The notes beneath the pieces were generated by a model. The model was not told where the DNA came from. It worked only from the letters and a program-made list of their open reading frames with translations, and did not search any database. A DNA stretch of 38,732 nucleotides from a virus (lineage: Duplodnaviria; Heunggongvirae; Uroviricota; Caudoviricetes). Shown piece after piece: positions 3,272 through 14,027 of this stretch. The translations under genes were made by a program, and so were the position numbers. Numbering within the stretch: the first letter of the stretch is position 1; each line of letters starts with the position of its first letter. The DNA lies in IMG/VR virus record IMGVR_UViG_2718218126_000001; one strand, given 5' to 3'.

Positions 3272-5484
3272 GCTGTTTGCTCCTGTGCGGCGGCGAGAGC
3301 GGCGAGGCGTTCGGTTTTGATGTCGCTGATACGGCGCAGACGTGATCCCAGATACGATGAATATTCTTTATCGCCTTTGGCTTCCGCTGCTTTCCTGTGT
3401 ACATCCACTTCGCGGGCGATGAGGCCAAATACCTTGTTTACTTCGTTGGCGGTTACCGCGGCGGCCAGCGTATTGGCAACGTTGATAAGCTTCTCATCCA
3501 GTTCCTTACGCAGACGGGTAGCATCTTCCGCATTTTCGCTGGCATTCTTGATATCAAACTCAGCTTTATTCCTCTGGCGGTATTCCGGATTGTCGTACAG
3601 GCCCATGAAAATATCGGCGCTGAATCCGAGAGGGGATAGCGCTTTCTTAACAGCATCCGTCCAGGATTTCTTCGGCGCTTCGCCGTCGCTTGTTGGTCCG
3701 TATTTAGTGTCGTAGATATAAGGTGTGCATCCGTAAGCCTCGGACTCACCGCGCACTCCATTCAATATGTACCAGACTCTAACTTTCATGGTGTGGTGCA
3801 TTTCACATAGGTACCCGCCAACACCGTCTTGAATCAGATCCCATTCTATTTTTTCACCAACCTGTTTTTTGCGAACTATCGGTGCGCCTTTATCAAAACG
3901 CTCTTCCACCACCTCTACACCCCAGCCAATACCAAACGGCCCAAATTCGCGAGTCGCTTTCATCGCTATATAAGTGCCGTTGATGGATGTGCCGCCGCCG
4001 TTCTGAGAGAAAGCACTGGTGAAGCGCTCATCGGTTTTGAATACGTTCTTCCACAATGCCAGGTTATCTGTGTCGTCGGAGTCCTTTAACTCCGTTTCGA
4101 TAGCTGAGATTGCATTCTGCCGCTTGTGCTCTTCGGTATGGACCCGCTCAACCAGCGCGTCAACGTTCTGCACCAGATCCTTTACCTGCTCGCTAAGTTT
4201 TTCTTGTGGAGGAGTCTCTTCTGCCAGGGTAATTGCTGCAGGTTCCCTCTGTGATACGGCGTTATTTTCAGGTACGTCATACACATGGCGAGGCGTGACA
4301 AACTGCTCACGCAACTGCTGCAAACTACGTTCTCCAGCATTTGCAGCTTCGCTTTTTTCGCCCTGATTTGAGGGTGTTTCTGACATCATCCCATCAATTG
4401 AGAATCGTCCGCCGCCGTGGTTGGTGACTTTTACATCATCCTTTGGTGCTGCTTCCTTTGGCTTCTCTTCAACAGCATTTGCATCACGCTGCCCGTTAGC
4501 TTGCAGCCAGTTGTCGATGTGACTGCGCAGGGATTGTGGGAAGTGGTACGTGTCTTTTGCGGGGGCGCTCTGAATAACACCGAATACTGATGCACGGTCA
4601 TAGGCAAGGATCTGATCCGTTGTGCGCAAGGCCATTGACCAGCGTTTAAAATCTTCCCTGTCCTGACTGATTATTTCGTCTGCCGCTTTCAGGATGCTGG
4701 GGGTGATTTTTTCCGGGCCAACGGGTAACAGGGCGCAGGCAATTTCACGATCCAGTGTGGCGTGAGTCTGTTGGTAAGGACGTGCGGATGCTGTTTCTGG
4801 TTTTACCTCCGGCAGCATTTCATCGCGTTTACCGGGATTCTCTACCCATTTTTTTATAAATTTGGAGATAGTCCAACTGGTCGGGTTTTGTTCCTGGGTA
4901 TCGCAACTTGCCAAAATTGCATGTACCAGATTATTCAATCCAGCAATATGCATGTACTCGATGGGCTTACACGCCACCATGGCATCAAGAACGATGCGGT
5001 TAAACGCGTCAACCTCATCCTCACTGTCAGTATCACTGTTGTCGAGCATCTCCAGGTATTCACGCGTCTGCGCAAGCAATTCACTGTCGACTTCGTTGGC
5101 ATCGTGGCTGAACAGCAGGACGGCGGCGAAGCGTTCACGAGCAGGCAGTTTCATCAGGTCGCTAACCTGTGAGATATCTGCTGAACTGCAACCTGAATCA
5201 ACAGGAGTGTTAACTACCCATCTCTCGCCATCAAAACTGTGTTCTGTGGCAAACGTCTCATCAAACTCACCGACGCCTGGGCGCGGTTGGCCCGGGGCAT
5301 CTTCCCAGATTTTAGGTTTGAAATAGTTGTCGCCGTGGTCAGGGTAGGCTTCCCACAATTTGCCGATGATGATGTTCTCGGCAACTTTTTTGTTAGGGGC
5401 GTCGATGGCGATGGCCAGCGCCGGGATCGCGCCGTTTTTGAGCGCACCTTTTTTCGCTTCTAACAAGCCGTTAAAAATGGTCAT
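3268..5484 (-). CDS. Large early protein with Rad52/Sak-type single-strand annealing domain and ~450-aa N-terminal extension
   Basis: 738 aa. Residues ~480-640 carry Rad52 signatures (GPFGIGWGVEV, KKSWTDAVKKALSPLGFSADIFMGLYD). RBS GAGGAAAG before the ATG at 5482-5484. Confidence 0.6.
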   Translation of the reverse strand: MTIFNGLLEAKKGALKNGAIPALAIAIDAPNKKVAENIIIGKLWEAYPDHGDNYFKPKIWEDAPGQPRPGVGEFDETFATEHSFDGERWVVNTPVDSGCSSADISQVSDLMKLPARERFAAVLLFSHDANEVDSELLAQTREYLEMLDNSDTDSEDEVDAFNRIVLDAMVACKPIEYMHIAGLNNLVHAILASCDTQEQNPTSWTISKFIKKWVENPGKRDEMLPEVKPETASARPYQQTHATLDREIACALLPVGPEKITPSILKAADEIISQDREDFKRWSMALRTTDQILAYDRASVFGVIQSAPAKDTYHFPQSLRSHIDNWLQANGQRDANAVEEKPKEAAPKDDVKVTNHGGGRFSIDGMMSETPSNQGEKSEAANAGERSLQQLREQFVTPRHVYDVPENNAVSQREPAAITLAEETPPQEKLSEQVKDLVQNVDALVERVHTEEHKRQNAISAIETELKDSDDTDNLALWKNVFKTDERFTSAFSQNGGGTSINGTYIAMKATREFGPFGIGWGVEVVEERFDKGAPIVRKKQVGEKIEWDLIQDGVGGYLCEMHHTMKVRVWYILNGVRGESEAYGCTPYIYDTKYGPTSDGEAPKKSWTDAVKKALSPLGFSADIFMGLYDNPEYRQRNKAEFDIKNASENAEDATRLRKELDEKLINVANTLAAAVTANEVNKVFGLIAREVDVHRKAAEAKGDKEYSSYLGSRLRRISDIKTERLAALAAAQEQTA

Positions 5485-6873: not shown

Positions 6874-7128
6874 AACGCGATGGCGGAGAGCATCAACGGA
6901 CTTTATAAAGCGGAGGTGATACATCGTAAGAGCTGGAAAAACCGCGCCGAAGTGGAACTGGCCACACTGACGTGGGTGGACTGGTACAATAACCGACGGT
7001 TGCTGGAACGACTGGGTCATATCCCGCCGGCAGAAGCGGAAAAGGCATATTACGCTTCCATCGGAAATGGTGGTCTGGCAGCCTGAGTTCACAGATAAAA
7101 CACTCTCCCGGAAAACCGGGGCGGTTCA
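6874..7128 (+). repeat. Tandem 255-bp duplicate of the IS right end (copy of 6619..6873), including a second right terminal repeat
   Basis: Exact repeat seen in sequence; ORF 6880..7086 duplicates the last 68 aa of OrfB. Most likely a remnant of a second IS copy after rearrangement. Confidence 0.85.
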
Positions 7129-7184
7129 GAAATGTCCGCTCTCTCATCCTCTGGACAGAATGCGGCGCAGCTCGCCATGCCAAA

Positions 7185-7688
7185 ATGCTGGAAACAGAAC
7201 AGGCCTGGGAAGTTTTCGAAAAGCTGGAAGATTGTTATTTTAGACAGCGTCCAGAGAGGCGGAGTACAACTACCGATGACCGTACTCCCTTACGTGATGC
7301 CGTTAATATGCTGGTCGGTAAGAAAGGCATGATGTATCCCGATGCCTACACCATGATTCATCAACGCTTCGCCGTCTCTCACATAGAACAACTGTCACAG
7401 ACGCAAATGTTAGAGGCGATTGAATACATCCACTGCCTGCTACTCGATGAAAATCAGCCAACCATTCCAGATTTTTCTTTTATCACCACTATCAAAAATG
7501 GAAAAGTGACCAGGATGCGCCATGTTGCCAAAGGCGAACATCTGATGACGTTTGACGCTTTCAAAGAGATCGCTGAGCGGGCAGGGTATCTGGTGATCCA
7601 CAGCGACAACCTGCGAAGTATGACGCTGGATAAATTGATGGTAATGGGGAAAAAGTCGGTTGTATCCGTTGCTGATTCAGCATTTTGA
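7185..7688 (+). CDS. Phage regulatory / antirepressor-like protein, probably 5'-truncated by the IS-associated rearrangement
   Basis: 167 aa from ATG 7185, but the same frame is open back to the IS end at 7129 with no upstream start. Functional assignment weak. Confidence 0.35.
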   Translation: MLETEQAWEVFEKLEDCYFRQRPERRSTTTDDRTPLRDAVNMLVGKKGMMYPDAYTMIHQRFAVSHIEQLSQTQMLEAIEYIHCLLLDENQPTIPDFSFITTIKNGKVTRMRHVAKGEHLMTFDAFKEIAERAGYLVIHSDNLRSMTLDKLMVMGKKSVVSVADSAF

Positions 7689-7720
7689 CAGGTTGAATGT
7701 TTGGCGCGGTTATACTCTAT

Positions 7721-7797
7721 TTGCGCTTAAAAAGGTATTTAGTCACAACCAGCACGAGGCCGAATACTCTGTCAAAGTACCGCCCATGTAAAACTGT
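7721..7797. repeat. Direct repeat copy A (~77 bp, ~93% identical to 11322..11398); decayed copy of the 3' end of the membrane-protein gene
   Basis: ttgcgcttaaaaaggtatttagtcacaaccagcacgaggccgaatac... versus copy B; 4 mismatches and a 1-bp deletion that breaks the reading frame. Confidence 0.8.
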
Positions 7798-7865
7798 TAC
7801 GTATGTACTTGATGACTAAGCTGGCACCAGGTTAACACCAGGCGCCAGCTTGAAGGAAACTTCAG

Positions 7866-8789
7866 TTATTGGTTTCTGAGGAAAGCGATTCTTGAAAGGG
7901 TCATTTGCGTCTGGCAGTCGACCATTTTCTTGACTTCAGCATCTGTTCCCTGCATTGAAACTTTACCGCACATAGCATCCTTAGTTTTGATCCACTGACG
8001 CTGAGAAGGCAGCAACTCTTTTTTCTTCGCCGGCGTTAACCTGCCCCAGACTGTATTCAAATCAGAGTCAGCATTCGCAAATGCCATTCGGGACTGATCA
8101 AGGCTTTCAGCTTTTTGCGGCTGAAGTTGTGCCTGCCTCTCTATTTGCTTCTCCGCCTCATACCTGGCCTGTTCCTGTGCCCTGAGTTGCACCTGTTGTT
8201 CCGCTTCAATTTGACTCTGTTGGGCATCCTTAGCCTGCTGGATTTTCTGCTGCTCAACGATCGGGTTGATAATGGAAAGCGATGTCAGTAAAGCGGCGCC
8301 CACTGATATCGGATTATCAGAAGAGGTTTTTACAAAAACGTTTTTCTGATCGTCGGTCGCCTGCACGGTGTAGGTGATACGTTTTGAAAAGGCGTTTGCG
8401 TTGTTCTCCAAAAACAGATTTTCCATTTGCTTATCGAGATTACGATTAAAATTCTTTCTGTAAGCATCAGAAAGCTGGACGTACTCGTTCGCAGGTAGAG
8501 TCATCGTCACGGTCCCTTCACAAGTTTTCATTGTGCTGCCCGTGTCACTTGATGTTGTGGAGATTTCAGAGACGGCTAGTTTGATCTTGTCCAGTGTGCT
8601 TCGTTTGGTCTGATTAGTGACATCAGGGTATTTATCGACCTGTTCAGAGAGTCCTTCATAAGCAGATTTTTTTAATAAATCCATGAGAGCTGATTGGGTC
8701 ATTTCCGAAGAACAACCGATCTCATCTTTTTTGTTATCACAGCCTGTAAGGGCAATGGCGAGTAAGAGTACTGAGTATTTTAATCTCAT
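7866..8789 (-). CDS. Lipoprotein with C-terminal DUF1311 (LprI-like lysozyme-inhibitor) domain, putative
   Basis: 307 aa; signal peptide plus lipobox LAIALTGC; Gln-rich coiled-coil middle; C-terminal ...DLNTVWGRL...QRQWIKTKDAMC...MVDCQTQMTLSRIAFL resembles DUF1311. Confidence 0.55.
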   Translation of the reverse strand: MRLKYSVLLLAIALTGCDNKKDEIGCSSEMTQSALMDLLKKSAYEGLSEQVDKYPDVTNQTKRSTLDKIKLAVSEISTTSSDTGSTMKTCEGTVTMTLPANEYVQLSDAYRKNFNRNLDKQMENLFLENNANAFSKRITYTVQATDDQKNVFVKTSSDNPISVGAALLTSLSIINPIVEQQKIQQAKDAQQSQIEAEQQVQLRAQEQARYEAEKQIERQAQLQPQKAESLDQSRMAFANADSDLNTVWGRLTPAKKKELLPSQRQWIKTKDAMCGKVSMQGTDAEVKKMVDCQTQMTLSRIAFLRNQ

Positions 8790-9415
8790 GAATTCCCTTT
8801 AGAGTAAGGATTGGTTTTTAAGACGCGGTCTGTAATCAGTTCCGAGAGCTACAGTAAACAACGCTGAGCACTGAACGCATCACAGGCAAGGTAAAAGGTG
8901 ATATCGGCAAAGGCTGTGAAACCTTTAATTCAACAGATGGGAACGGTATGCACAGGATCCTGTAACGACGCTCCCAAAACCGGAAACCTGTAAGGCATGT
9001 TTTCGCTGCTGAACTTAATATACGAACCTGCACTATCATGAACATATTTTATATCGTTATACCCCGAGTGATTGTGCCCGGCAATGGATAGTGTCCTGGA
9101 GGAACTATTTCTACTGTAAAAGGTAGACATTTAATTTCAGTGTGGAATTATTCCCTGCTGTTAATAACCATGGCTCTATATGGCACCGAGCGGACTAGTT
9201 AACTTGCCTGAAAGCCGCTATGAGTGAGGAGCGAATATTGGCACGATAGGATACCTGAACCATTTTTTGGACATGCGCTAAAAGCGAATGATTAGTTTTA
9301 TCGGAATATTTACAGTATACTTACAAGGCAAGCTTGGCGTACCGTCTTGGGCGAGATTGCTTAAATTATTTTGTGGATATATCATTCAAACAAAAGATAA
9401 TAAAATGAGGTTGTT

Positions 9416-9613
9416 ATGTCATATATTCGCGTAGAGAAAGATGGCCTTCAGTATGAAGCAGAATACTTCCGTGAAGAGGATATGGTCACAGTCTTTGGGG
9501 TTAGAGGAGGGCATTCCAGCGTGGTTCTAAATGGAATGACAGAAGTCGCGGCTGCTCGTACTGCGTTACGAAATCTTATTAGAGAAAATCAGGTTGATCC
9601 TCTAACTGATTAA
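9416..9613 (+). CDS. Hypothetical small protein (65 aa)
   Basis: RBS TGAGG 8 nt upstream of the ATG; AT-rich surroundings; no recognisable motif. Confidence 0.4.
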   Translation: MSYIRVEKDGLQYEAEYFREEDMVTVFGVRGGHSSVVLNGMTEVAAARTALRNLIRENQVDPLTD

Positions 9614-9817
9614 AAATAAGCCATCTTAACTGAGAGCATATTTTGATATAATTTAGATTAAATCTATTTTGAAGGTTAGTTTGGGATGAGAAGATTACAT
9701 CAAAACCGTTATTACTAGCAATAAGTTGTGTAAATCAAATAATACATAATCAGGTGGTAATATATACTAAGCGTAGTAAAGTTTTTATATATTCCTGTAA
9801 CTTTGTGAGAAACTTCC

Positions 9818-10483
9818 ATGAAAGCCGACAACTTAAGAATTATAGAGAATGGCAAATATGTTTTCGATATGTTCTTGGATACTGGTGAATTTTACTATAC
9901 AAGTCATGCCTTTGACACGAGAGAAGATGCAAAAAGCTGGATGGAAGAATGGCAGATTTGGGCAAATAATGTATCGAGTGGGAAAGTAAGTAGTATTTAT
10001 TATATTTTACAAGTGCCTGATACTTGGGCCGGTTCTTCAGATAAAAATAACCCTTACTCGGGACTTTATGTGAAAATAGGGCGTTCCAATAATGTGCTAA
10101 AAAGGTTGTCTAACCTGCAGACAGGTGCATTTGGTCAATTAATATTACACGCTTTGGAACCAGGTGGTTCAGAAAAAGAAAACTATCTTCATGAAAAATT
10201 TAGCAACGAAAGACGTCAAGGTGAATGGTTTGTTTGTACTAAGGAACTTACCAAGCATATATTTACAACATGGTTTAAAAACAAAATGCTCCCACCAGAA
10301 CATCAAATAAAAATAATGCAGCTCGCAGAAAGAATAGGTATTTATTCGCATGTTCATACACTAATGGGGGGGAAGCCAGACTTAGTAAACCCATCTATTA
10401 GTGAACCTTGGGAATGCGAAAAATATGTTTTGGTTGATATGATTTATAGCTCTTTAGCAAAGCAAGTTAATCATAAAAAATAA
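9818..10483 (+). CDS. T5orf172 / GIY-YIG-like domain protein (putative nuclease)
   Basis: 221 aa; SSIYYILQV...GLYVKIGRSNNVLKRLSNLQTG...EKENYLHEKFSNERRQGEWF matches the GIY...YIG...R...E pattern of T5orf172/MUG113 domains. Extended -10 TGaTATAAT upstream. Confidence 0.6.
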   Translation: MKADNLRIIENGKYVFDMFLDTGEFYYTSHAFDTREDAKSWMEEWQIWANNVSSGKVSSIYYILQVPDTWAGSSDKNNPYSGLYVKIGRSNNVLKRLSNLQTGAFGQLILHALEPGGSEKENYLHEKFSNERRQGEWFVCTKELTKHIFTTWFKNKMLPPEHQIKIMQLAERIGIYSHVHTLMGGKPDLVNPSISEPWECEKYVLVDMIYSSLAKQVNHKK

Positions 10484-10803
10484 AGTGTTACATTTTAACT
10501 ATACAATTATTGATTCACTAATGAAGAGGTGATTTAGACGTATGAAGTTTTAATAAGCTCCAAGAATATTTTGTCATACATGGGTTAAAGAGTTATATAA
10601 TAATATCTGCTTCTGGAACACAGCAGACAAGCACCTGCAGATAAAGGTCTGCTGAGAGCGAGAAGCGGATCATACGTTGGAAGTTGTTTAGGCAAATACG
10701 TTATAAACGTATTTGATTAAATTTACTTGGATCATAGTCTTCAATAACGCTTTATTATATTGTTTTTCATGCAGCAAACAGGTTCACAGGTAGGTAATAA
10801 GCT

Positions 10804-11208
10804 ATGAGTGGATGGAAAGAGCCTTTTACATTAGCAGAACAGATACAATTAGCATTAAATTTAGGTTATGAGGCTGTACCAGATGAAGAGGCATATACTG
10901 GGGCATACTTCATTAAAGGTGGTAAGAAGTGGATCTTTAACATCATCGGTCTCAAAAAGACATTGAATATATCTTCAGATGATGAACTAAGAGGGCAGGA
11001 TTATGATGTTGATATGTATTTCGAAATTCGCCAAAATTGGGCACAATACCAAGATATGATCTTTGGAAGCGAAGATATCACTCCTTCACCTAAAAATGAA
11101 CTTACTTCAATTTACCATGACCTGCAGGTAACGGATGAACCCAGGGAAATGGTGTATCTTTCTGATGGGATGTGGCTGGATCCCAACGGACGAATTGTAC
11201 AACGATAG
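10804..11208 (+). CDS. Hypothetical protein (134 aa)
   Basis: Own upstream region with palindromes (aaatacgt/acgtattt at ~10694-10715); no recognisable motif. Confidence 0.45.
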   Translation: MSGWKEPFTLAEQIQLALNLGYEAVPDEEAYTGAYFIKGGKKWIFNIIGLKKTLNISSDDELRGQDYDVDMYFEIRQNWAQYQDMIFGSEDITPSPKNELTSIYHDLQVTDEPREMVYLSDGMWLDPNGRIVQR

Positions 11209-11317
11209 CACTCGAACACACTCAGTAATCGTCTATAAGGCCAGCACTTGTTACTTGGTCATTTGGGGTTGCTGGTCTTCTCCATTAAATCGACTAAAGT
11301 CTGTTCCATAGAGAGAG

Positions 11318-11923
11318 TTACTTGCGTTTAAAAAGGTATTTTGTCACGACCAGCACGAGGCCGAATACCTCTGTCAAAGTACCGCCCATGTACAACTGTA
11401 GTGTTAAATCCTCAAATTCCAGCTTACCTGCGCCGTCGGCAATAAATACACCATTCATTATCAGAAGTTGGCAAGCAAGGATAATCAGGAACCATTTCCC
11501 GTATCGTTTTTTTAGAGCGATTTCTGCTTCAAAATCTTTGTTGTTGAGTTGTTTGCGCTCATGCTCGGTATCAAGTGAATTCACCTGTTTCACAGATGTG
11601 AACTCGGTCAAGATTTTACTCTCAGTACGGGTGACTTGTTGAGAGGGTGTAACAGTTGGAATTCTTTTGCTAGACGCAGCTACAGCCATTTTGCGAGCTT
11701 CGGCAGCTCTTTTTCTGGCTATTCCGCGAATACGGACAGCCGTTTTTTTGGGGGCGTGCGAAACCTTTGGCTGAGGTGAAGTTTCGTCAGGAGACTGAAC
11801 CGGGGTTTCATCGTCCCCCGGCTCAACCTCTTCTGCTAACTGACGGTGTAGGTTGAGGGAATCCTTCAGTCGGCGTGCAACTTCCTGTTTGAAACGGCTG
11901 TTAAAATCGTCATCCGATGGCAT
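11318..11923 (-). CDS. Membrane-anchored protein: hydrophilic basic N-terminal region, two predicted C-terminal TM helices
   Basis: 201 aa; WFLIILACQLLIMNGVFIADGAG and TLTEVFGLVLVVTKYLF hydrophobic segments. Starts 9 nt after the peptidase stop; last 25 codons lie inside direct repeat copy B. Confidence 0.55.
   Translation of the reverse strand: MPSDDDFNSRFKQEVARRLKDSLNLHRQLAEEVEPGDDETPVQSPDETSPQPKVSHAPKKTAVRIRGIARKRAAEARKMAVAASSKRIPTVTPSQQVTRTESKILTEFTSVKQVNSLDTEHERKQLNNKDFEAEIALKKRYGKWFLIILACQLLIMNGVFIADGAGKLEFEDLTLQLYMGGTLTEVFGLVLVVTKYLFKRK
11322..11398. repeat. Direct repeat copy B (~77 bp), coding the 3' end of the membrane-protein gene
   Basis: Matches 7721..7797 with 4 mismatches and 1 indel. 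Confidence 0.8.
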
Positions 11924-11932
11924 TCTAAAGCG

Positions 11933-12421
11933 TTACCCCAACCTCAAGTTCTTTAAACGATAAGTCATCGCATCGTCAGATACGCCAAAATAATGCGCCA
12001 TTATATAACTTGGTTGGCCGTCAGCGTGCAGTTTTCTGACCTCATCAACCGGCATCAGAAGTTCTGCTGCGAACTTGTTCGCAAAAATTTCATCAGGATG
12101 CGTTCCGGCGCTTGCGGTTTCGCCACGTAAATCAACGTACTCATATTCATCACTATGCGATGCTTGCCGGGCGATGTAATGCCCCAACTCATGCCCACAT
12201 GAAAAACGTTGACGAACTTTGTTGTCATCACTGTTTAGAAAGATCGCTGGATCTTGATCTTTTTGTTTAATCAGTGCGCCAGAAACTTTCCCAGGAAGAT
12301 CGGTAATAAAAACATCTAATCCCATGTCGTGAGCAATTTTCGCTGGATCAACAGGGAAACCACGCCCGCACCAGAACGTGTCCAGCACTCGCCGGGCGTG
12401 CTCTCTTGGGTTGGTAGCCAT
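11933..12421 (-). CDS. ImmA/IrrE-family (DUF955, M78-like) zinc metallopeptidase
   Basis: 162 aa; HEXXH as CGHELGHY and downstream DEIFANKFAAELLMP, the family signature. RBS GGAGG. No fused HTH domain. Confidence 0.7.
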   Translation of the reverse strand: MATNPREHARRVLDTFWCGRGFPVDPAKIAHDMGLDVFITDLPGKVSGALIKQKDQDPAIFLNSDDNKVRQRFSCGHELGHYIARQASHSDEYEYVDLRGETASAGTHPDEIFANKFAAELLMPVDEVRKLHADGQPSYIMAHYFGVSDDAMTYRLKNLRLG

Positions 12422-12495
12422 AGCTCCTCCAGTTACTGCATTACGATTGTTGGTCGAAATATAGACAACATGTTCCGTACCACTTTCCTGTGAAA

Positions 12496-12510
12496 GTGCA
12501 AATTCTGCAC
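12496..12510. promoter_or_regulatory. Perfect inverted repeat GTGCA-N5-TGCAC upstream of the peptidase operon; candidate operator
   Basis: gtgcaaattctgcac seen in sequence, ~75 bp upstream of the peptidase start on the minus strand. Confidence 0.3.
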
Positions 12511-12750
12511 TTCTGGTACGATATTAACTGTTAGTAGTAAAGTCTTCCAGATAAATCACTTTAAAATCTTGTGAATTGCTTGCTTTTTACGCTGCATTGT
12601 GGATGGCTCAATGTTTCCAGTAAAAACATACATGATAATCATGACATTAGTGGTTTTTTAAGCGTCCATATGTTTCTTAAAAAAATGGATGCCACAAGAG
12701 GCCAGATGAGAACGGAAAGGGAAGGCTATTACATGTGTGATTTATTACAT

Positions 12751-12766
12751 CTGTAAAAAAATACAG
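12751..12766. promoter_or_regulatory. LexA-box-like CTGT-N8-ACAG motif (weaker match)
   Basis: ctgtaaaaaaatacag in the divergent intergenic region. Confidence 0.3.
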
Positions 12767-12855
12767 ATCTAACTTGATCTTTTCATTGAAGTTTTTCTTG
12801 GTCCTGGATAGGATCTGGAGGTTGCGAAGTTTTTAGAGTCGCATCAAAGGGAAAG

Positions 12856-12879
12856 CCCTGACAGCGCCAACTGTCAGGG
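12856..12879. other. Perfect 9-bp stem / 6-nt loop hairpin of unknown function
   Basis: ccctgacag-cgccaa-ctgtcaggg in a 540-bp non-coding region. Confidence 0.3.
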
Positions 12880-12988
12880 CCATACAAAAACATCGGTTAA
12901 TGCTTTCGTTGAGATCTCGGTTTGGGAGATTACCTCAACCGGGATCCCGTGTAAAGCATTCATTACCGAAAATGATATAGGTCAATGA

Positions 12989-13267
12989 ATGAAACACATC
13001 TGTAAAAAGTCACATCGTCACGACAGTATGTTTGATGTTCTTTCTGCAAATCAGGGTAACGTTGGGCGGCACAAGTGTTGTGGATGTGCCTATGATAAAG
13101 GTATGTGGCATGCATTAATCGGCGTTCCGCGTGCGGTTGATGACTCTGTTTTAGGTGATTTACCCGAAAGCCAGGCTGGGCATGTCCGTCATAAAGATGC
13201 TTTTGAAGCATATAATATGGGCTATGACCATGGGATGCATAAAAAAGCCTACGGTATGGCCTCATAA
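12989..13267 (+). CDS. Hypothetical Cys/His-rich small protein (92 aa)
   Basis: Followed immediately by a strong intrinsic terminator, which favours this strand over the overlapping minus-strand ORF. Function unknown. Confidence 0.4.
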   Translation: MKHICKKSHRHDSMFDVLSANQGNVGRHKCCGCAYDKGMWHALIGVPRAVDDSVLGDLPESQAGHVRHKDAFEAYNMGYDHGMHKKAYGMAS

Positions 13268-13288
13268 TCTGGTGCAAATGAATAACTA

Positions 13289-13316
13289 ACCCGCTTCGGC
13301 GGGTTTTCTTTTTTAT
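13289..13316 (+). terminator. Rho-independent terminator
   Basis: acccgc-ttcg-gcgggt stem-loop followed by tttcttttttat. Confidence 0.6.
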
Positions 13317-13385
13317 AGAACCCTGCGATGTGAAAACGAATAATAAATTTTGCAAATAATGCAGTTTTTATTATTCGAGGTAATT

Positions 13386-14027
13386 ATGAAAACCTTCTAT
13401 GAGGACTGGCCTGAAACTTTCGTTAGCCGATTAGATATGTTACGAGCTCTGGATGATCGCGGCTCGACCCGGAGGCTCTATCTTGAGCGGACCGGGGCAA
13501 TATTTGACGCTCTGGCAGAAGAGATACGTACAGCCGTTGCCGGGCATCCTGAAATCGACGTGAGTGAACTTGATATCGGGCCGCTGTATCGCTATTACAA
13601 ACGTGGAGAAAAGGGGAATCCGCTGGCTGACTTACTTATTGAGTTGGCTCCACCAACTTGTGAACGGGTTCGTATATCTCCTGAAGTGTACACAATCCCG
13701 TATCTGTTTTTTGCACTGTTGCTAGCGCAAGGCGCTGACAACGATGCCCGCGATTTTTTCAATATGATGATGCGACCGTTGATCATCGCCTACCGTTTCA
13801 AACAACTGGCGCGCTACCTTGGCACTAAGGGCGGAGGACGACCACAGCACAGATTAAAAAGCGAAGCCATTGAACTGGCTGATCGTTTTTTTACTGAAAA
13901 CCCGACAGCGCCATTATCGCGTGGTGTGCAATACATATCCGGTATTTTTGTGGCGAAATACTCTGACCCACCTGCAGCGTCGACGATTAGAAAATGGTTA
14001 ATTTCAATTTACAGGAGTGATAAATAA
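13386..14027 (+). CDS. Hypothetical protein (213 aa from ATG with GAGG RBS)
   Basis: ORF 13350..14027; preferred start MKTFYEDWPETF at 13386. No recognisable motif. Confidence 0.5.
   Translation: MKTFYEDWPETFVSRLDMLRALDDRGSTRRLYLERTGAIFDALAEEIRTAVAGHPEIDVSELDIGPLYRYYKRGEKGNPLADLLIELAPPTCERVRISPEVYTIPYLFFALLLAQGADNDARDFFNMMMRPLIIAYRFKQLARYLGTKGGGRPQHRLKSEAIELADRFFTENPTAPLSRGVQYISGIFVAKYSDPPAASTIRKWLISIYRSDK

Follow-up and report, generated by a model that had tools for sequence, protein, structure and literature searches.

What is a gene for a nuclease-like protein doing in an island of AT-rich DNA in the middle of a prophage, and does it act by itself or together with the small genes on either side of it? 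The question is raised by a viral sequence of 38,732 nucleotides (nt), IMG/VR record IMGVR_UViG_2718218126_000001, which turns out to be a lambdoid prophage of Escherichia coli integrated at tRNA-Ser adjoining mtfA. The whole of this stretch is called the window here, and positions refer to it unless another locus is named; loci used for comparison are cited by L numbers where they need to be told apart. An initial annotation had described three plus-strand open reading frames (ORFs) at 9416-9613, 9818-10483 and 10804-11208, which encode proteins of 65, 221 and 134 amino acids (aa), and had proposed that the middle one specifies a T5orf172 (GIY-YIG-like) protein that might serve as an anti-phage effector, either as a single gene or within a small operon. 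The three ORFs are indeed found at these positions. The evidence described below supports the view that the 221-aa gene behaves as an autonomous single-gene unit, and comparisons of homologous DNA indicate that the slot in which it lies is made up of accessory cassettes that move separately. At the cassette joints there is a hairpin repeat not described before, which is the part of the locus most worth follow-up.

The 221-aa gene product (9818-10483, plus strand) is a stand-alone protein of the T5orf172/MUG113 type. Profile searches place both Pfam models above their cut-offs over aa 74-152 (MUG113, E 6.4e-10, 39.9 bits against a cut-off of 22.3; T5orf172, E 4.4e-7, 30.8 bits against a cut-off of 20), both models match 29 of 29 family members, and RefSeq labels the gene "GIY-YIG nuclease family protein". 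The segments from which the GIY...YIG...R...E-like core had been proposed (SSIYYILQV, GLYVKIGRS, VLKRL and GEWF) are all present in the translation, and the key residues hold throughout the family: Y61, Y62, K86, I87, G88, R96, E136, W137 and F138 are invariant in 29 homologues from several phyla. In the same 29 homologues a total of 36 positions are invariant over the full length of the protein, extensions included, and these also comprise E121, H125, R132 and R133. By analogy, Y61/Y62, R96 and E136 can be regarded as candidate catalytic-type residues.

The N- and C-terminal extensions, to which no function had been assigned at the outset, are real and conserved, and structure prediction gives them a shape. 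The AlphaFold model built with the family alignment is confident (pLDDT 90.5, pTM 0.86). It predicts three strands and a helix with the UPF0339 (YegP-like) fold for aa 1-55, an alpha/beta core of the GIY-YIG type for aa 59-139, and for aa 142-219 a family-specific region in which two long helices are followed by an extended, conserved segment (PDxVNPS...W...D) and then by a short helix at the end. As domains, the nuclease-like core can be placed at about aa 58-152 and the helical C-terminus at about aa 153-221. Pfam DUF1508 (PF07411) matches 0 of 29 family members at E values up to 10. Pfam likewise detects none of the zinc-finger modules CapR, DUF723 and DUF4397 in the 221-aa protein, which has only two Cys residues, neither of them in an invariant or near-invariant column. 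No relative of solved structure is detectable by sequence. Judging from the model, the YegP-like domain would take the place of a binding or sensing module. The domain family itself is already known; what is new is the combination of a YegP-like domain, a T5orf172 core and a conserved C-terminus in a protein that lacks a zinc finger, as is the occurrence of the gene as a stand-alone cassette gene of defence islands and of an integron.

Homologues of the 221-aa protein are widely distributed and keep varied company. A protein search returned 34 clusters of full-length relatives of about 215-235 aa, and when one genome was scanned for each species, 21 species proved to have the family, spanning Enterobacterales, Vibrio, Moritella, Pseudoalteromonas, Colwellia, Thiohalophilus and several cyanobacteria; further hosts are Acidobacteria, one metagenome-assembled genome of Dehalococcoidia, and Flavobacterium. 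An apparent fusion of the family within a 548-aa ORF in Dehalococcoidia was discarded as an artefact, namely a long open frame in high-GC DNA. Most members of the family reside outside prophages, and among 50,697 deposited phage genomes no full-length homologue was found, with matches to the core alone (41-43% identity) in five records. An all-against-all comparison of neighbours detected no conserved partner within 4 kb, with the exception of the 65-aa gene at four enterobacterial loci. In Vibrio vulnificus the homologue lies between two copies of an attC-like repeat of about 120 nt, a repeat that punctuates an array of small same-strand ORFs including BrnT and ParE toxin genes; because it is flanked by two of the array repeats, this homologue is a cassette, with a single gene, of a chromosomal integron. 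The Enterobacter cloacae complex has a 76%-identical homologue, again without the 65-aa gene, which adjoins a PARIS system (AriA 7e-38, AriB 2e-22). In Citrobacter the pair of 65-aa and 221-aa genes follows directly upon the Shango genes SngB (1e-186) and SngC (8e-279) and has a Mokosh-like helicase, MkoC (1e-64), downstream. The Colwellia homologue lies at the end of a filamentous prophage near smpB, and 17 distant loci have mixed neighbours that include an Eco29kI restriction-modification pair, Cas10, CARF-HEPN proteins and AAA_15/21 ATPases. The proposal that the 221-aa gene is a single-gene unit is thus borne out by the lack of a conserved neighbour in 21 species and by the one-gene Vibrio integron cassette.

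How, then, did the gene come to be in this prophage? The locus lies between the replication genes (with a DnaB-type helicase) and the Q antiterminator, that is, in a region resembling the nin region, and it is shared with E. coli O43 RM10042 at 100% identity over 9000-11400 and 99.9% over 7127-13500, these being the stretches compared. Within it, a variable cargo slot can be delimited at 9191-11295 (no strand), where related prophages carry other cargo. A blastn comparison with the prophage of E. coli SK1144 (L002) shows flanks that are 96.7-97.8% identical up to 9190 and again from 11296, and an IMG/VR contig (L095), with a left flank in the same range of identity, provides a third allele of the slot, with homology that stops at the same position, 9190. 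The slot flanks are present in about 440 of 5426 complete E. coli genomes, 17 of which have the cargo described here and 413-429 the alternative cargo, the latter being largely ST131-type strains. The initial annotation was therefore right to call this a prophage accessory locus, and right about its AT-rich composition: GC content is 0.34-0.35 over 9500-11000, against about 0.45-0.55 in the surrounding DNA. The alternative allele (L002, 9475-11400) is AT-rich too; its product, a 232-aa protein of phrog_5606, matches the PADLOC model of the RT-associated transmembrane protein RTasTM weakly (E 1.8e-5).

The cargo itself is composite. A block of DNA at 9217-10669, which holds the 65-aa and 221-aa genes, is matched over its full length at 84% identity in Enterobacter (L005); homology to this first cassette in Citrobacter (L004) starts at 9320 and is interrupted by an insertion sequence. 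A second block, running from 10698/10703 to 11291 and containing the 134-aa gene with about 100 bp of 5' and 85 bp of 3' DNA, is 82-84% identical to DNA of Proteus and Citrobacter. The 65-aa gene alone, with 10-60 bp of flank, is 80-84% identical to P4-like satellite hotspots. Because the blocks homologous to other genera resolve separately, the slot is better described as a stack of separate cassettes than as one unit. On this comparative evidence it appears to be a mosaic of separately mobile accessory cassettes, cassette 1 at about 9217-10669 and cassette 2 at about 10698-11296. Purifying selection acts on all three genes, whose dN/dS values against several diverged copies are 0.11-0.28.

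The joints of this mosaic are marked by a repeat. Both ends of the Enterobacter-shared block (9217 and 10669) carry the same 19-nt motif, GCTNWGAGYGAGRARCRRA, which occurs nowhere else in the window. The motif pattern was derived from these two sites, so that an estimate of its chance occurrence would be circular; its agreement with the block limits, which BLAST gave independently, is not. The longer junction repeat, of about 70 nt and with the 3' arm GGTCTGCTNNGAGCGAGGAGCGGAC, was described by a covariance model (R1) built from ten copies at different loci. A scan of the entire window with R1, filters off, finds exactly two copies, and these enclose the cassette of the 65-aa and 221-aa genes. 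Copy E1 (9162-9244, plus strand; 25.5 bits, E 1e-4), with its 3'-arm motif GCTATGAGTGAGGAGCGAA at 9217-9235, forms the left edge of both the slot and cassette 1. Copy E2 (10598-10678, plus strand) forms the right end of cassette 1, its copy of the 19-nt motif being the 3' arm of a strong hairpin, the inverted repeat 10605-10670; it scores 91.2 bits on the plus strand against 29.4 bits on the minus strand, the difference arising because several positions are G·U pairs. In the shape common to the ten copies, an outer helix of 9+2 pairs leads through an internal loop to an inner helix of 7 pairs with a variable 18-nt loop. When 28 distinct copies are compared, the paired fraction of pair cells is 92.7%, and one pair switches cleanly between G-C (13 copies) and A-U (9 copies). 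The covariation score is greater than that of 498 of 500 shuffles; this support is modest because the stems are also conserved in sequence.

The repeat is not confined to this prophage. R1 detects additional copies in Proteus, Citrobacter, Enterobacter and E. coli loci (copies are present in L004, L005, L024, L050, L053, L060, L070-L072 and L073-L099), and a pattern scan of IMG/VR gave 29 stretches, with R1 copies in 25 of the 25 that were searched. E2-like copies are found once per genome in 85 of 5426 E. coli genomes, in accessory islands, for example between a DJ-1 gene and variable content or between an FRG gene and a helicase. Wherever a locus has two or more copies, all are in one orientation; the 17 enclosed spans that were listed measure 0.4-2.9 kb and contain 1-3 ORFs in either orientation. 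Furthermore, homology breakpoints fall inside the element in six independent locus comparisons. The window departs from L005 at 9217 and 10669 and from both L002 and L095 at 9190, L070 departs from L072 at 5069 and L050 from L054 at 5828, and L060 departs from L004 at 1857 and 3349 and from L005 at 1858 and 3362. The homology of the window to the Citrobacter locus L004 also stops at 10669. The position of crossover is not fixed: in the prophage slot it falls within the 5' arm, whereas elsewhere it is found where the loop meets the 3' arm.

The bracketing copies and the breakpoints within the repeat suggest an integron-like site of cassette shuffling. Two readings of the repeat remain, one being plain homologous recombination between dispersed repeats and the other a mechanism that is both site-specific and strand-specific. 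Identification as a canonical attC site was rejected, the RYYYAAC...GTTRRRY core sites being absent from the repeat consensus, and in the examined stretches around the window and the related loci the annotation shows neither an integron integrase nor an intI-like gene. A search of 8700-13000 against 4227 Rfam covariance models at E values up to 1 gave no match, and a literature search for the repeat motif gave nothing but unrelated primer sequences. A relation to ERIC or to Tn3-type inverted repeats, considered on account of a shared 11-mer, found no support from any tool. The boldest extrapolation would make the repeat the site of an unrecognised, integron-like cassette exchange operating among Enterobacterales prophages, P4-like satellites and islands, with a cargo that includes the YegP-T5orf172 protein as a new single-gene anti-phage nuclease; taken as a whole, this proposition is doubtful, if still worth keeping in view. 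Such an exchange would shuffle accessory cassettes of 1-3 genes, many of them of defence type, and its machinery would have to act in trans or be single-strand-specific because the loci have no integron integrase and no canonical attC.

The two small genes in the slot deserve attention in their own right, since the initial annotation had left room for a joint function. The 65-aa gene (9416-9613, plus strand) is a portable small gene that encodes an acidic protein of pI 4.8 with a confident predicted fold (pLDDT 94.8), a four-strand sheet and a helix; the protein has no confident family or structural match and zero PADLOC matches. Its named homologues, in 34 clusters, are from Enterobacterales only. 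Of 5426 E. coli genomes 109 have the gene, among them Nissle 1917 and ATCC 25922, in both of which it sits in a P4-type island at tRNA-Sec, after an ABC-three-component system and before a gene for a 441-aa protein. At the Nissle 1917 locus (L049; NZ_CP171242.1 54953-60236) and in L030-L035 it lies 39-47 bp past the third gene of this system, which consists of CTD6, MC2 and a 608-aa protein and was seen in Xenorhabdus and in E. coli, where the loci are P4-type islands. The 441-aa protein, which follows the 65-aa gene in most E. coli copies, has an RxxxxxxH (HEPN-like) motif and no Pfam or PADLOC match.

The genes found downstream of the 65-aa gene at 33 loci are diverse: a T5orf172 gene, the 441-aa gene, an FRG/PDC-S15 gene, an MBL-fold gene, an AAA_13 ATPase gene, or convergent genes. 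At two loci (L050, 6019-6214, and L054, about 4992-5190) a 65-aa pseudogene with stop codons or a frameshift lies upstream of an intact gene for a 408-aa MBL-fold protein with an LmuA-like C-terminus (PADLOC 2.9e-12); the L050 pseudogene and its MBL-fold neighbour are part of a lambdoid prophage and lie beside an anti-phage dGTPase. Because the neighbours vary and the pseudogene stands beside an intact MBL-fold gene, the 65-aa gene is a frequent inhabitant of defence hotspots with no obligate partner, and in the prophage slot it is most likely an independent passenger. Its pairing with the 221-aa gene is restricted to close enterobacterial relatives. A degenerate copy of the 3'-arm motif between the two genes in relatives hints that they were once separate cassettes.

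The 134-aa gene (10804-11208, plus strand) forms the centre of cassette 2 (10698-11296, plus strand), an independent moron of about 600 bp that comprises an upstream region, the gene, and a stem-loop at 11241-11275 after the stop codon. The block is identical in extent across contexts, always ending at this conserved stem-loop, and its 82-84% identity extends to three loci each of Proteus (L024-26) and Citrobacter (L027-29). Close relatives of the protein, which is acidic (pI 4.4) and whose gene has a dN/dS of 0.13-0.19, are found in Proteus, Providencia, Serratia, Citrobacter and Yersinia. In Proteus and Citrobacter the gene occurs alone, at prophage ends: in Proteus just past a prophage integrase and before genes for a 371-aa protein and an ApeA/HEPN protein, and in Citrobacter braakii between a host gene and ogr/gpD of a P2-like prophage. 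In the Proteus loci L024/L025 (5747-8689) the 371-aa protein, for which no family match was found, is enclosed by two junction repeats, and the ApeA_NTD1/HEPN_Apea protein follows.

A profile search of 1.84 billion representative proteins yielded 93 relatives of the 134-aa protein, mostly of 70-160 aa, which have in common a core of about 65 residues at the N-terminus and a VYLSDGxWL motif at the C-terminus; in a few, the core forms the C-terminal end of a longer protein, in one case a protein with an IF2_N domain. The family (P0093-P0184) has no Pfam or PHROG model, and the window protein no PADLOC match. Among the matches of the profile is a protein of 1641 aa with nine Pfam AP2 domains (E 9.4e-5 over the same library), aa 27-70 aligning to each AP2 repeat in a YTG...KKW...YD pattern. 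Pfam AP2 (PF00847) matches none of 42 family members at E values up to 1 and a profile search finds no relatives in the PDB, so the AP2-like domain must be regarded as tentative. The 134-aa protein is probably a small DNA-binding protein, and its gene is most likely another independent passenger. Where the two cassettes meet, 10687-10721 forms a near-perfect hairpin (16-nt arms, 88% complementary, 3-nt loop) that appears terminator-like in a scan, and homology to other 134-aa loci begins within it, at 10698-10706. The right arm is part of the conserved 5' end of the 134-aa cassette; the left arm is an inverted copy specific to the window, and possibly the footprint of the joining event.

Signals that might govern expression of the three genes are only partly as first described. 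The extended -10-like motif proposed for the 221-aa gene is present as a perfect TGATATAAT at 9644-9652 (plus strand, read from the sequence), 165 bp upstream of the start codon; however, relatives keep it only in part (TGATATATT, TGAGATATT), and promoter-like sites are not enriched relative to shuffled sequence (8 found, 8.2 expected), nor did a terminator scan show enrichment. The palindromes reported upstream of the small genes likewise divide into two cases. Two strong hairpins, at 10605-10670 and 10687-10721, do precede the 134-aa gene, and the folding of 10596-10730 has a z-score of -5.5, but the 65-aa gene is preceded by no more than a trivial palindrome of 8 bp, GATATATC, at 9376-9383.

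What does the 221-aa protein do? The explanation we favour, while rating its chances as slightly short of even, is that it serves the lysogen as a single-gene conflict effector directed against phage or other mobile DNA that enters the cell. The mosaic structure of the slot, the autonomy of the gene and the defence genes seen beside several of its homologues speak in favour of this view. The functional core of the slot would then be the 221-aa protein working alone. Its N-terminal YegP-like domain would mediate dimerisation and/or the binding of single-stranded nucleic acid, its T5orf172 core would cut DNA by means of the invariant Tyr61/Tyr62, Arg96 and Glu136, and prophages, islands and integrons would carry the gene as cargo that protects their host from incoming phage and mobile DNA. 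T5orf172 is a subfamily of GIY-YIG, and the nuclease activity of at least one T5orf172 protein requires a glutamate inferred from GIY-YIG alignments (PMC10448857). Single DUF1508 domains homodimerise (bioRxiv 10.1101/2024.11.21.623966), and single-gene nuclease defences are known to be stored in integron cassettes (bioRxiv 10.1101/2024.07.02.601686). The analysis establishes the domain identity, the fold, the conservation of residues, the autonomy of the gene as a one-gene cassette and the presence of some family members in defence islands, whereas the nuclease activity, its target, its trigger and a protective phenotype are what we infer. Several points weigh against a defensive effector. The assignment of the N-domain to YegP comes from structure and a weak profile match, and the core has Lys (KIG) where the canonical YIG motif has Tyr, a trait found in other T5orf172 proteins as well, which means that its chemistry is extrapolated. 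The best match in PADLOC-DB 2.0 (PADLOC) is PDC-S57, which is below threshold (E 0.0037, 14.9 bits) and covers the core only, and a literature search found nothing on T5orf172/MUG113 as a defence gene or as a validated integron defence cassette. The neighbourhoods of distant homologues also hold nitrogenase and other housekeeping genes. Finally, the gene is co-directional with the early-right lytic operon, and it may on that account be a gene of the lytic cycle rather than of the lysogen.

The main rival to a defensive role is that the protein is a selfish, free-standing endonuclease of the homing type, which would cut alleles that lack it and spread by recombinational repair with no benefit to the host. 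T5orf172 genes of ICP1, T5-like and other lytic phages have been read as homing endonuclease genes at the boundaries of genetic exchange (PMC10448857), and the 221-aa gene has no conserved partner, lies at a recombination boundary and belongs to a cassette that has travelled between unrelated settings, its copies being about 84-90% identical. On the other hand, zinc-finger domains for DNA binding (CapR, DUF723 or DUF4397) are present in 87% of the T5orf172 homing endonucleases of phages (PMC10448857), and this protein, whose two Cys residues lie outside the invariant and near-invariant columns, carries none of them. Nor is it found at full length in any of the phage records searched; it is present in a single copy per locus and away from essential phage genes, other members are in integron cassettes and chromosomal islands, where homing makes little sense, and the alternative allele of the slot is different cargo rather than an empty target site. 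We consider the homing explanation unlikely, though a serious contender. Rather less probable is a role in the service of the phage itself, whether as a lytic-cycle nuclease that degrades host DNA or helps recombination or replication, or as a domesticated DNA-binding regulator. The location between the replication genes and Q, in the orientation of the early-right operon, fits such a role, and domesticated T5orf172 relatives that act as repressors are known, the example being CapR of PLE (PMC10448857). Only 17 of about 440 related E. coli prophages carry the gene, however, which makes it dispensable for the phage; most family members are not in prophages at all, and the invariance of the catalytic-type residues across phyla argues against a loss of catalysis.

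Two further proposals would give the 221-aa protein a partner. That the 65-aa and 221-aa genes form a toxin-antitoxin or addiction pair, with a small acidic antitoxin encoded upstream of a nuclease toxin, is improbable. The small acidic protein is encoded upstream and in the same orientation, the two genes travel together in at least five different contexts, and the 65-aa gene also precedes other nuclease-like genes (those for the MBL-fold, FRG/PDC-S15 and 441-aa RxxxxxxH proteins). Yet a 204-bp gap with its own promoter-like motif separates the genes, several loci have a convergent gene downstream of the 65-aa gene, and the small gene is missing beside the 76%-identical E. cloacae homologue, all distant homologues and the one-gene integron cassette. 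Moreover, it is a pseudogene upstream of an intact MBL-fold gene at 2 of 2 loci. An obligate partner or antitoxin was rejected on its absence beside close and distant homologues alike and on this pseudogene. The small operon that the initial annotation had envisaged fares worst. The three genes are adjacent and co-oriented, and they occur together in 17 E. coli genomes and in Escherichia whittamii, as a three-gene defence system would. This arrangement, however, is confined to one prophage lineage at an identity of at least 99%; the 134-aa gene co-occurs with the others only in Escherichia, has cassette limits of its own, exists without them in genera that include Proteus and Citrobacter, and is set apart from the 221-aa gene by a 320-bp spacer and two strong hairpins; and the pairing of the 65-aa gene with the 221-aa gene is a feature of close enterobacterial relatives only. 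A single three-gene operon was rejected on distribution and cassette limits, and a multi-gene system of any kind seems very improbable indeed.

The backbone genes that flank the slot are conserved. On the left, an LprI-family lipoprotein is encoded at 7866-8789 (minus strand; Pfam LprI 5.4e-8, phrog_5094, and RefSeq annotation). On the right are genes for a 201-aa protein (11318-11923, minus strand; phrog_5346), whose C-terminal region looks hydrophobic, and an ImmA/IrrE metalloprotease (11933-12421, minus strand; Pfam Peptidase_M78 7.7e-18, PADLOC capP 2.4e-25). Both right-hand genes are kept in the prophages with alternative cargo. On their strand the 201-aa gene comes after the ImmA/IrrE gene, and no adjoining helix-turn-helix partner is apparent; as a backbone feature beside the slot, the pair might serve in regulation or sensing. 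An 81-bp direct repeat (7718-7797 and 11319-11399, 92.6% identity) has one copy in the 3' end of the 201-aa gene and a duplicate of it immediately downstream of the LprI gene, and the two copies thus enclose the LprI gene and the cargo slot; prophage L002, with the alternative cargo, has the repeat as well. Two short overlapping ORFs occupy 8836-9130 (minus strand), between the LprI gene and the slot, and one of them contains ...IAGHNHSGYN... and by eye resembles a metallophosphoesterase-type remnant. These ORFs may represent a decayed nin-region gene.

Should the 221-aa protein prove to be a defence nuclease, the known defences would gain a compact single-gene system whose family reaches from enterobacterial prophages to Vibrio integrons and cyanobacteria. 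It would then also stand as the first report of a fusion between a YegP-like domain and a T5orf172 core, and would offer a handle on what YegP/DUF1508 domains sense. The finding that an apparent three-gene island is a stack of independent cassettes recommends caution with predictions of function from gene adjacency. Likewise, were the junction repeat a true recombination site, it would explain how small genes are swapped among unrelated mobile elements of Enterobacterales without an integron, and it could serve as a computational flag for new cargo genes.

The locus invites comparison with several known systems. The T5orf172 homing endonuclease genes of ICP1 (Odn among them), T5-like and other lytic phages resemble the 221-aa gene in being free-standing and at recombination boundaries of mobile genomes, and in encoding the same Pfam domain with the conserved Glu in an EWF motif. 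Unlike these, the 221-aa protein has no recognised sequence-specific DNA-binding module, with a YegP-like N-domain and a helical C-terminus instead. The phage genes are often multi-copy and near essential genes, whereas the 221-aa gene is single-copy and absent from sequenced phage isolates, its family having been found in prophage slots, chromosomal defence islands and an integron. The canonical GIY-YIG nucleases (I-TevI/Seg, the UvrC N-domain and SLX1) differ from it in the KIG motif and the flanking domains. PDC-S57, a PADLOC candidate for single-gene phage defence, is of similar size (about 212-221 profile positions) and matches weakly over the T5orf172 core (aa 83-157), but its architecture is different, since the match starts close to the N-terminal end of the profile and leaves PDC-S57 without a YegP-like N-domain, and the score is far below the level of membership. 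The YegP/DUF1508 (UPF0339) proteins, including the proposed sensor domains of Menshen NsnA, have the same fold of three strands and a helix as aa 1-55, and the pattern GxYxF...GE..(F/Y)xTS...A aligns to YegP repeat 1; here, unlike in those proteins, the domain is a single copy fused to a nuclease-like core, and it is missed by Pfam DUF1508. The 134-aa unit is like the morons of lambdoid phages in being a compact block of about 600 bp (upstream region, gene and terminal stem-loop) placed between backbone genes, while in other genera it is at prophage ends; unlike in a moron, its promoter and terminator are putative and the stem-loop has no clear U-tract. As for the junction repeat, it departs from attC sites in lacking the RYYYAAC/GTTRRRY cores, in having no integrase or attI nearby and in the strong conservation of its stem sequence, and its cassettes depart from those of an integron in that the genes are in either orientation and the crossover positions are not fixed. 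What it shares with attC is its imperfect, strand-specific hairpins with variable loops, the single orientation of the copies, the cassettes of 1-3 genes that they enclose, and the breakpoints that fall inside them.

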